Shown here piece after piece: positions 50,470-52,260 of a DNA stretch of 64,000 nucleotides. Origin of the DNA: Escherichia coli (GTDB lineage: Bacteria > Pseudomonadota > Gammaproteobacteria > Enterobacterales > Enterobacteriaceae); assembly GCF_041886205.1 (NCBI RefSeq), contig NZ_CP169029.1, one strand, 5' to 3'. The position numbers and the translations under genes were made by a program. Position 1 is the first letter of the stretch, and the number at the start of each line of letters is the position of its first letter. The notes under the pieces are model-generated. The model was not told the DNA's origin. It searched no databases and was given only the letters and a program-made list of their open reading frames with translations.

Positions 50470-50650
50470 TACGTCTGGCTTCCAGTGCCTGGGGGGAAAC
50501 CATACTGATATGTTGACATCCTCCACGCCCTGAAGGACGTGGATCCCTGCTACGTTCAGGCTGTCGCCTGAATCATTTCGGTGGGTTCCTGCTTCAACGA
50601 GCGGCCTGACTGCACCATCTCTCCACAGGCAAGAACGGCGTGCCCCGCCG
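50470..50650 (-). ncRNA. Predicted omega-RNA (TnpB guide RNA) overlapping the tnpB 3' end and the adjacent IS end
   Basis: Inferred only from the known architecture of TnpB systems; structured hairpin-containing sequence lies just downstream of the tnpB stop. Confidence 0.25.
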
Positions 50651-52260
50651 CTAAAATGTTACGAGCGCCATTTACATCGGCGTTCGCTGTATATCCACAT
50701 GCCTGGCATCTGAATTTACTTTGTGACAGGCGATTTTCTTTCGCTGTATGACCACAGCACGCGCATCGCTGGCTTGTGTACGCTGGCGGAACAGCAAGCA
50801 CCTGACCGCCACGCCAGAGCTGCTTGTACTCAAGCTGGCGGCGCATTTCATACCAGCCCTGATCCAGTATCGTACGGTTTAAACCTGATTTTGCCCGGAC
50901 ATTGCGACCCGGCTGGCTGACCGTACCCGCTGCTGACTTTGACATGTTGCTGACCTTCAAATCCTCAATGACTATCATTGCGTGGTTTTTGCTGACGGTC
51001 GTTGTGACTTTGTGAAGGTAGTCCCTGCGGATATTTGCGATACGGGAATGCAGTCGCTGTATTTTGCGTTCCTGCTTCTGCCAGTTATTGCTGAATTTGA
51101 CCTTGCGGCTTAACTGTCGCTGAAGTCTCGCCAGCTTCTTCTGGTTTTTCTGAAAACTGTTTACAGGCTCAAAGACTGTGCCATCTGACAGCGTGGCGAG
51201 TTTAGCCACGCCAGCATCCAGCCCGACCATTGATGCTGAAGGGTGAACCGGAGTTGATACTTCACTTTCTGTCTGAATACTGATGTACCACTTACCGCAG
51301 GACTGGCTGACAGTGACATTTTTCACAACTCCCGTGACCTGACGGCTATTCCGGTAGCGCATCCAGCCCAGTTTCGGCAGAAAAATACGGCTGTTTTCCT
51401 GATCGAGCTTAACGCCCTGCGGGTAGCGGAATGCATCATTCTGTCCCCGCTTTTTGAATCGGGGAAAAGCAGCCCGCTTCTGGAAGAAGTTTTTGTAAGC
51501 CCGCTCAAGGTCTTTCAGTGACTGTTGCAATGGCTGTGACGGGGCATCTTTAAGCCATTGCGTTTCAGTGGCATTTTTCCACTCAACCAGCCAGGAAGCC
51601 ATTTTTCCGTAAGGGATGTATTTATTACCGGCCTCATGATTCTCATTCTGACGTGCCAGAGCACGATTGAAAACGAAACGACATGCGCCTGCGAAGCGCC
51701 TCATTTCACGCTCCTGTTGACCACCGGGTCTTAACTGGAATTTAAATGCCTGTAGTCGTTTCACAGGCCAAATGATACTTTGGTCTGTGAAAAAAGAAAC
51801 CGATATCCGGCGTGGAAGGCATTGTGTTTTCCTGATGCATGTTCACCTGGTCTTTGTCACCAAATACCGACGCCAGATTTTTGACCATGACGCGACAGAA
51901 AAACTACGCACTTACTTTTCAAAGGTATGTGCTGATTTTGAAGCTGAACTGGTTGAAATGGATGGCGAACCAGATCACGTCCATTTGTTAATTAACTATC
52001 CTCCCAAACTGGCGATATCCAGTCTGGTAAACAGCCTCAAAGGCGTATCGGGTAGGTTACTGCGACGAGATCGACCAGATATTGCAGTCAGGTATTACTA
52101 CAAAGGCGTTTTGTGGAGTCCTGGCTATTTTGCCAGTAGCTGCGGAGGTGCGCCAATATCCGCCATCCGTCAATACATTGAACAACAGCAAACACCTGGT
52201 CAGGTGGAAAACCGCGCCGTATATCCCCGCCCTGAAGGACGGGGTTTTACGGCGCACCGG
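50505..52260. mobile_element. IS200/IS605-family insertion sequence (IS609-like) with tnpB and tnpA; boundaries approximate
   Basis: Divergent TnpB and HuH TnpA ORFs bracketed by two same-strand imperfect hairpins sharing the core gccctgaaggacg (about 50522-50543 and 52225-52244). Confidence 0.75.
50556..51764 (-). CDS. tnpB: IS200/IS605-family TnpB (OrfB), RuvC-like RNA-guided nuclease family
   Basis: 402-aa ORF with candidate RuvC residues ([24 protein letters not shown]) and a C-terminal zinc finger CxxC...CxxC. Confidence 0.88.

Follow-up and report, generated by a model that had tools for sequence, protein, structure and literature searches.

What is the mobile element that stands next to ytfB in a stretch of 64,000 nucleotides of Escherichia coli DNA (contig NZ_CP169029.1; the whole stretch is called the window below), where exactly does it begin and end, and in what state are its two genes, one for the transposase TnpA and one for the RNA-guided nuclease TnpB? 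A first, sequence-only reading of the window had placed an element of the IS200/IS605 family at 50505-52260, with an apparently intact 402-aa TnpB, a divergently oriented HUH TnpA, related hairpins at both ends and a predicted omega-RNA. The follow-up analysis described here makes it very likely that positions 50513-52260 are IS609, inserted 3' of TTTAT in ytfA and inherited in about one third of E. coli, and that its TnpB/omega-RNA module is intact while its mobility is probably poor.

The E. coli chromosomal gene order at this place is cycA, fklB, ytfB, the element and then ytfA, and positions 50300-52500 match strain C9 at 100% identity and O157:H7 strains at 98.5%. In the records of C9 and O157:H7 the Prokaryotic Genome Annotation Pipeline (PGAP) labels tnpA as 'IS200/IS605-like element IS609 family transposase' and tnpB as 'RNA-guided endonuclease InsQ/TnpB family protein'. 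Since RefSeq names IS609 at this locus in both sets of records, the element is already catalogued, and the O157:H7 copy in ytfA, whose tnpA carries the PGAP name IS609, is 98.5% identical to the window element across 1748 bp. Judged by this identity and by a name taken from RefSeq/PGAP, the window element is an ordinary copy of the catalogued IS609 at an already known and common site. It occupies 50513..52260 (1748 bp) with the minus strand as its top strand, so that its left end (LE) has the high coordinate and its right end (RE) the low one; the placement rests on comparison with an empty site, on identical ends at five independent sites and on the PGAP name.

The empty site was found in strain ATCC 25922, which carries at the corresponding place an uninterrupted TetR/AcrR gene of 648 bp, the homologue of ytfA. 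Alignment of both flanks to it places the insertion scarlessly at 50513-52260 (1748 bp), apart from one ambiguous G (1 nt), with no target-site duplication (the empty site keeps TTTAT); the high coordinate of the span first proposed was therefore exact, and the low one lay 8 nt too far out. In the tnpB sense (minus strand) the junctions read ...CCTGGTTTAT / CCGGTGCGCCG ... GGAGGATGTCAA / CATATCAGTATGG..., where slashes mark the boundaries. The ytfA site was compared with four other chromosomal sites, in ydcO (K-12 derivative), yedK, a DUF3251 gene and a DUF1869 gene. The first and last bases of the element are identical at all four; each 5' flank ends with YTTAT, the 3' flanks bear no relation to one another, and the pattern common to the five insertions is ...YTTAT / CCGGTGCGCC...GGAGGATGTCAA / N. 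The target site TTTAT, also the predicted transposon-associated motif (TAM), lies outside the element directly 5' of LE at 52261..52265 (minus strand), as supported by YTTAT at the five sites and TTTAT at the empty one. The interrupted TetR/AcrR gene ytfA, intact with 648 bp in ATCC 25922, is left as a 3' fragment at 50405..50512 and a 5'-side fragment at 52261..52506, both on the minus strand, according to the PGAP annotation of the identical strain C9 and, for the latter, the ATCC 25922 empty site.

The ends themselves carry the structures expected of the family. The window contains exactly two copies of the hairpin motif CCNCGCCCTGAAGGACGNGG, one at 50523-50542 and one at 52225-52244, on the plus strand in either case, where 100 shuffles predicted 0 chance occurrences; the two hairpins are direct and not inverted copies, and they differ by one compensatory pair (A-T vs C-G). 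The LE subterminal hairpin, CCCCGTCC TTCA GGGCGGGG (52225..52244, minus strand), was delimited by folding, by the motif search and by a match to the hairpin part of a covariance model (R1, described below), and an outer stem extends it to 52214-52255. The RE subterminal hairpin, T CCACGTCC TTCA GGGCGTGG A (50522..50543, minus strand), rests on folding, motif search and covariation. As single-stranded DNA (ssDNA) both ends fold into hairpins on the minus strand (z -4.8 for LE and -2.4 for RE), slightly better than on the plus strand thanks to a T.G wobble in place of a C.A mismatch, a preference that agrees with the minus strand as the active 'top' strand. Situated at the 3' end of tnpA, the LE hairpin could serve as a terminator, which raises the thought that both hairpins are generic REP-like (repetitive extragenic palindromic) or terminator palindromes unrelated to transposition, with the open reading frames (ORFs) nearby by chance; however, the motif brackets the element exactly, the ends are reproduced at five sites and in the empty-site comparison, and the tetranucleotides next to the hairpins covary with the target in relatives, so that this explanation is refuted for practical purposes.

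That covariation concerns the DNA guides by which such elements find their cleavage sites. IS608 is cleaved 3' of TTAC at its LE and, at the other end, at a TCAA that lies 10 nt 3' of the RE hairpin; a tetranucleotide 5' of the respective hairpin foot reads each site, the left guide G_L being AAAG (PMC3201880). The corresponding G_L of the window element is AAAA, the four bases on the 5' side of the LE hairpin foot (52245..52248, minus strand), assigned to the target TTTAT by covariation in about 40 relatives, and the right guide G_R, placed by analogy with IS608, would be GGAT, 5' of the RE hairpin foot (50543..50546, minus strand), a position with GAAT in most relatives. The RE cleavage motif TCAA forms the last 4 nt of the element (50513..50516, minus strand); the cleavage point follows it, 10 nt 3' from the foot of the RE hairpin, and IS608 agrees in both motif and spacing. 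The pairs TTAT/AAAA and TCAA/GGAT of IS609 thus follow the IS608 guide rule at an equal 10-nt spacing. The rule was tested on about 40 related elements from other Proteobacteria, whose target pentanucleotides are TTTAT, TTTAC, TTGAT or TTGAC. Target base 3 and guide base 1 form a Watson-Crick pair in 39 of 40 cases (T:A 18, G:C 21, 1 exception), and so do target base 5 and guide base 4 in 38 of 40 (T:A 22, C:G 16, 2 exceptions). By these counts the left-end guide covaries with the target, as the cleavage mechanism that defines the family requires, and the relatives provide a clean comparative demonstration of a left-end guide tracking its target. Together, the HUH/Y1 TnpA with its profile match, the same-strand subterminal hairpins without terminal inverted repeats, the insertion without duplication and the guide tetranucleotides bear out both the assignment to IS200/IS605 and the role of the hairpins as TnpA-type element ends.

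Two further observations belong to the targets and ends of the relatives. Within one TnpB clade (58-86% identity) all four target classes (TTTAT/TTTAC/TTGAT/TTGAC) are present, each with a left-end guide tetranucleotide to match; the TAM specificity of TnpB must have shifted in step with them, and the four classes form a natural series for mapping the residues that read the TAM. At one related locus (L026, left flank at about 2400-2500) the 20 nt directly 5' of LE form the 3' half of a further LE-type hairpin (TCAGGGCGGGGAAGGATAGC), which suggests a tandem or nested insertion of related elements.

The nuclease gene tnpB (insQ family; 50556..51764, minus strand) has a GTG start and codes for 402 aa, as established from its ORF, Pfam domains, alignments and the ratio of nonsynonymous to synonymous substitution rates (dN/dS). 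The protein contains PF12323 (HTH_OrfB_IS605), PF01385 (OrfB_IS605) and PF07282 (Cas12f1-like_TNB), scores 390 bits with the guided_TnpB profile NF040570 (cut-off 100) and aligns end to end with ISDra2 TnpB (8bf8/8exa/8h1j; phmmer E 8e-56). Counted along this alignment, D183, E267 and D363 correspond to D191, E278 and D361 of ISDra2 TnpB, which we take to be its catalytic residues, and the zinc finger C334/C337/C353/C356 (CxxC...CxxC) is kept. A first homologue search yielded near-identical E. coli proteins only and was replaced by a search against 50% representatives and a contig scan; among the window protein and 15 homologues at about 50% identity (16 sequences), D363 and the four cysteines are invariant, while E267 is present in 15 and D183 in 14. 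None of the six E. coli copies compared has an interruption in this gene, pairwise dN/dS is 0.20-0.36, and the exact protein occurs on at least 1000 contigs. On this comparative evidence TnpB is intact in sequence, with its RuvC triad and zinc finger, and under purifying selection, so the first description of the protein held up. A TldR, i.e., a nuclease-dead TnpB-like repressor, was considered and rejected, as the triad is intact, the protein is of full length and the gene lies inside a complete element.

An omega-RNA had been predicted across the 3' end of tnpB and the adjacent end of the element, with a guide from the ytfB-side flank, and both parts of this prediction were supported. For 80 loci with TnpB relatives (58-86% identity), nucleotide similarity to the window stops at the element end in nearly all cases, and in a MAFFT alignment of 53 sequences conservation continues up to ...GGAGGATGTCAA (GTCAA) and vanishes past 50513. 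A structure of six helices in four helix groups, with 39 pairs, was read off this alignment: 88.5% of the cells are paired, compared with 41-50% when the partners are slid by 1-3 columns, compensatory changes occur in 28 of the 39 pairs, and the covariation score is 0.359 vs 0.07-0.12 in the slid controls, values that none of 500 shuffles reached. Helix 1 lies entirely within the tnpB coding sequence and shows double changes in four of its six pairs. The covariance model R1, built from 44 loci with TnpB identities of at most 67% and with the window and all Enterobacterales excluded, has one full-length match in the window, at 50657-50513 on the minus strand (143.9 bits, E ~2e-44, no non-standard pairs); its sole other match there is the LE hairpin (13 bits). 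The predicted omega-RNA scaffold accordingly spans 50513..50657 (minus strand), supported by covariation, the covariance model and sub-threshold Rfam matches; it comprises four helix groups, the last being the RE hairpin, and overlaps the last 102 nt of tnpB, with a provisional 5' end. Taken together, the alignments indicate that a structured, covarying RNA lies over the 3' end of tnpB and RE and ends at the element boundary.

Rfam was searched in E-value mode, and all four matches are below the gathering scores and serve as leads only. They include HgcC (RF00062; 50623-50500, 24.6 bits vs a gathering score of 50), sot0042 (RF02656; 17.1 bits vs 88) and RAGATH-18 (RF03064; 50629-50586, 29.5 bits vs 44.9), all three on the correct strand and at the correct place. 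As every score is under its threshold, the RNA is not a member of HgcC, sot0042 or RAGATH-18 by Rfam criteria; the likeness consists of weak matches that cover the RE hairpin, the GGAGGAUGUCAA tail and the CCUGUGGAG...GAAGCAGGAA stem. The sotRNAs are TnpB-associated RNAs of haloarchaea (10.1101/2023.03.14.532601). Because conservation ends exactly at the element end, and as the 3' flanks are specific to each site, the predicted guide is the ytfB-side flank, CAUAUCAGUAUGGUUUCCCC (50493..50512, minus strand; assumed length about 16-20 nt), a part of the ytfA 3' remnant that adjoins ytfB. The predicted TnpB target is TTTAT followed by the guide-matching sequence CATATCAGTATGGTTT (CATATCAGTATGGTTTCCCC).

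Several structural and allelic candidates were discarded along the way. RNAalifold run on the MAFFT alignment missed the indel-rich RAGATH-18-like stem, and a long-range helix that it proposed (50712-50715 with 50518-50521) was rejected, as it lacks compensatory changes and an invariant Phe codon fixes two of its columns. Escape of empty-site alleles from the guide was also considered: the empty allele departs from the flank of the window copy at guide positions 3 and 18, but the occupied O157:H7 allele has the same bases as the empty one, and no pattern emerged.

The transposase gene calls for a correction: the window tnpA is not intact, having lost its stop codon. The gene (51772..52386, plus strand), defined by its ORF, profile and structure alignments, is a stop-loss allele for a HUH/Y1 transposase of 204 aa and is divergent to tnpB, as first reported; PGAP uses the ATG at 51772 as its start, which may instead be the GTG at 51787. 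Its product matches the IS200/IS605 transposase profile NF033573 over the whole profile (146 bits, cut-off 55), and its HUH motif (HVHLL) and tyrosine (IRQYIEQQ) align to the solved TnpA structures 2ec2, 2a6m and 2xm3. The core comprises residues 1-143, after which CAG at 52201-52203 stands in place of a TAG stop; because base 52201 is C, the product has 204 aa, with 61 extra codons that cross the LE hairpin and reach into ytfA. At this site O157:H7 has TAG and a 143-aa TnpA that stops 8 residues after the catalytic Tyr, and relatives in Serratia, Erwinia and Klebsiella indica have TAG at the same position, so that CAG is a derived stop loss. The target ATAA as an in-frame stop for tnpA was ruled out, being out of frame. 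PGAP calls tnpA a pseudogene in the identical strain C9. CAG is also found in the copies in ydcO, yedK and the DUF1869 gene, on top of further lesions; these are an internal stop in ydcO and the DUF1869 gene and a lost ATG in yedK, and the copy in the DUF3251 gene has a frameshift. Damage to tnpA therefore affects five of the six E. coli copies compared, window included, with inactivating lesions in the four outside ytfA, the O157:H7 copy being the one that has an intact 143-aa gene.

Is the window copy then still mobile? The reading frame of tnpA has its start, HUH motif and catalytic Tyr without an internal stop or frameshift, and both hairpins and the guide and cleavage motifs are intact, unlike the RE hairpin of O157:H7 with its mismatch at 50526, which would be compatible with a fully autonomous, active IS609 in which the read-through tail is harmless to TnpA and excision and transposition can still proceed. 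In the solved TnpA structures (IS608 TnpA), however, the catalytic Tyr sits on a mobile C-terminal helix, so a 61-aa tail is likely to interfere, and the termination of the O157:H7 copy and the relatives 8 residues past the Tyr as well as the pseudogene call of PGAP point in the same direction. IS609 never transposed in K-12 mutation-accumulation lines (PMC5009759), though the K-12 copy has an internal stop. An autonomous element is consequently rather unlikely; tnpA being a stop-loss allele, the window copy probably lacks autonomous mobility or has little of it.

A side observation concerns the same two features. In the O157:H7 copy a C-to-A change at the equivalent of 50526 breaks the fourth pair of the RE hairpin, yet its 143-aa tnpA is intact, while the window copy combines a perfect RE hairpin with a stop-loss tnpA; no copy examined has both features intact.

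The distribution of the insertion speaks to its age. Its right-end junction in ytfA was detected in 1743 of 5426 complete E. coli genomes (~32%), O157:H7 included, and the empty site in 3247 of them, K-12 derivatives among these. The K-12 strain MG1655 has no IS609 at ytfA, as the sequence-only reading had supposed, and carries its own at ydcO. The window and O157:H7 copies differ at 26 of 1748 nt, with a synonymous divergence (dS) of about 0.046 in tnpB, and E. coli IS609 copies differ by 1.5-2% at the DNA level. The divergence between the window and O157:H7 copies is typical of E. coli lineages and fits an old, mostly vertically inherited insertion in ytfA. As a separate observation, plasmid pLP50-1-87kb carries at 1514-2974 a relative of IS609 with 94.7% identity that keeps tnpB and the right end; it is cut off within tnpA, has no left end and adjoins hok/sok-type and IS91/IS66 sequences.

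The age of the copies also bears on whether the nuclease module could be an inert relic, its TnpB and omega-RNA not expressed or not active and its intactness a sign of recent origin instead of function. The GTG start of tnpB and TATCAT in the window where relatives have a TATAAT -10 box would suit such a relic, as would the published finding of Meers et al. that the IS608 TnpB of Helicobacter pylori was inactive in their assay, from which it follows that an intact sequence is no guarantee of activity. Yet with copies that differ by 1.5-2%, tnpB is uninterrupted throughout and evolves under constraint while tnpA is damaged in all but one, and every pair of the omega-RNA is standard in the window copy; an inert relic is therefore very unlikely, and the TnpB/omega-RNA module of the window copy looks functional by its sequence. 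The following points, like the inactivity of IS608 TnpB, weigh against the overall reading given at the outset. A scan for promoters and terminators gave counts near the shuffled expectation and nothing convincing for the omega-RNA; the covariation of the RE hairpin could reflect an ssDNA role for TnpA instead of an RNA role (helices 1, 3 and 5 lie outside the TnpA site); and literature searches found no experimental work (expression, cleavage) on IS609 TnpB/InsQ or its omega-RNA. Against poor mobility, the 204-aa TnpA retains a complete catalytic core and the exact protein occurs on 131 contigs, so that it is not necessarily inactive.

How IS609 would operate can be outlined from work on ISDra2 and Geobacillus, from which the activity steps are inferred, whereas the anatomy was computed directly. 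The element would have entered ytfA directly 3' of TTTAT by single-strand 'peel and paste' transposition. Transcription of the minus strand would yield an omega-RNA with the ytfB-side flank (CAUAUCAGUAUGGUUU...) as its 3' guide. TnpA would excise the top strand and reseal the flanks into a donor joint TTTAT+CATATCAG..., and TnpB with its omega-RNA would read TTTAT as TAM together with a guide match and cut either the donor joint or an empty allele that comes in, after which recombination with an occupied copy would restore the element. Retention of tnpB while tnpA decays fits the 'selfish retention' model. A bolder proposal, which we regard as unlikely on present evidence, is that IS609 in E. 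coli has largely become a tnpB/omega-RNA 'retention module', its nuclease kept for a role independent of transposition while tnpA decayed; tnpB and the omega-RNA would persist intact across thousands of genomes under purifying selection. If true, the module might guard the occupied ytfA allele against incoming empty alleles, a drive-like effect, or serve a function at the level of the host. The finding carries little weight as a discovery, as IS609 and the biology of TnpB and omega-RNA are established and the locus is annotated in RefSeq; with its exact ends, the TAM TTTAT, the DNA guides and the predicted guide, it makes a native E. coli TnpB system directly testable.

Some features of the region where the two genes start were recorded besides. 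A 14-nt inverted repeat (TTTCACAGGCCAAA / TTTGGTCTGTGAAA, 93% complementary) at 51759-51792 spans the GTG start of tnpB and the conserved start position of tnpA; only its outer 7 nt are symmetric in relatives, so the extended palindrome is specific to the IS609 of E. coli, and it could be an operator or a stem that sequesters the start codons. In relatives a perfect TATAAT box (region of 51764-51789) precedes the ATG start of tnpB by only about 7 nt, a spacing that suggests a leaderless or very short-leader tnpB mRNA; the window has TATCAT, with tnpB starting at GTG. For tnpA, relatives have ATG where the window has GTG (51787), and a T-to-G change in the window creates the upstream in-frame ATG at 51772.

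Further observations concern the neighbourhood of IS609. An IS3-family element of about 1.3 kb lies in or next to yjfZ at 52970-54297, with orfA at 53038-53364 and orfB at 53361-54251 (NF033516). Its near-identical copies are common and mostly plasmid-borne, and at this position it was found in 0 of 5426 complete E. coli genomes (no record covered at least 80% of the junction-spanning query). Beyond the insertion of IS609, ytfA is damaged further (52261-52800), and of its 5'-side part no more than about 220-245 bp can be recognised ahead of the yjfZ side. K-12, without IS609 here, also has ytfA annotated as a 402-bp pseudogene (3695-4096 of the compared record), and in ATCC 25922 the intact 648-bp homologue is followed by a different neighbour, a 3-ketoacyl-ACP reductase gene.

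Among known systems the closest are the IS609 copies of O157:H7 (ytfA) and K-12 (ydcO, insQ), which have the same ends, the 402-aa TnpB and the divergent gene order; the window element is about 98% identical to the K-12 copy in ydcO, and it shares the tnpA CAG of the copies in ydcO, yedK and the DUF1869 gene without their other lesions. IS608 of H. pylori resembles IS609 in its subterminal hairpins on one strand, in TCAA placed 10 nt 3' of the RE hairpin foot and in a target read by a tetranucleotide on the 5' side of the LE hairpin (AAAG/TTAC in IS608, AAAA/TTAT in IS609); as differences, the TnpA proteins match only at E 1.5e-19, the IS608 genes are co-directional where those of IS609 are divergent (IS605-like), and the target is TTAC as opposed to TTTAT. 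TnpB of ISDra2 from Deinococcus radiodurans (408 vs 402 aa) has the same catalytic triad and zinc finger and an omega-RNA that overlaps the 3' end of tnpB and ends at RE with a flank-derived guide, as predicted for IS609. It differs by many substitutions, by its TAM (TTGAT vs the predicted TTTAT, although some relatives in the IS609 clade also use TTGAT) and by its gene order. GstTnpB2 of ISGst2 from Geobacillus stearothermophilus has the TAM TTTAT, a motif shared there by TnpA and TnpB (10.1101/2023.03.14.532601). The ISGst2 system of Meers et al. thus comes from another host and lineage and has the same TAM as that predicted for IS609, and the donor-joint cleavage proposed for it, by which the transposon is retained, would by analogy apply to IS609.

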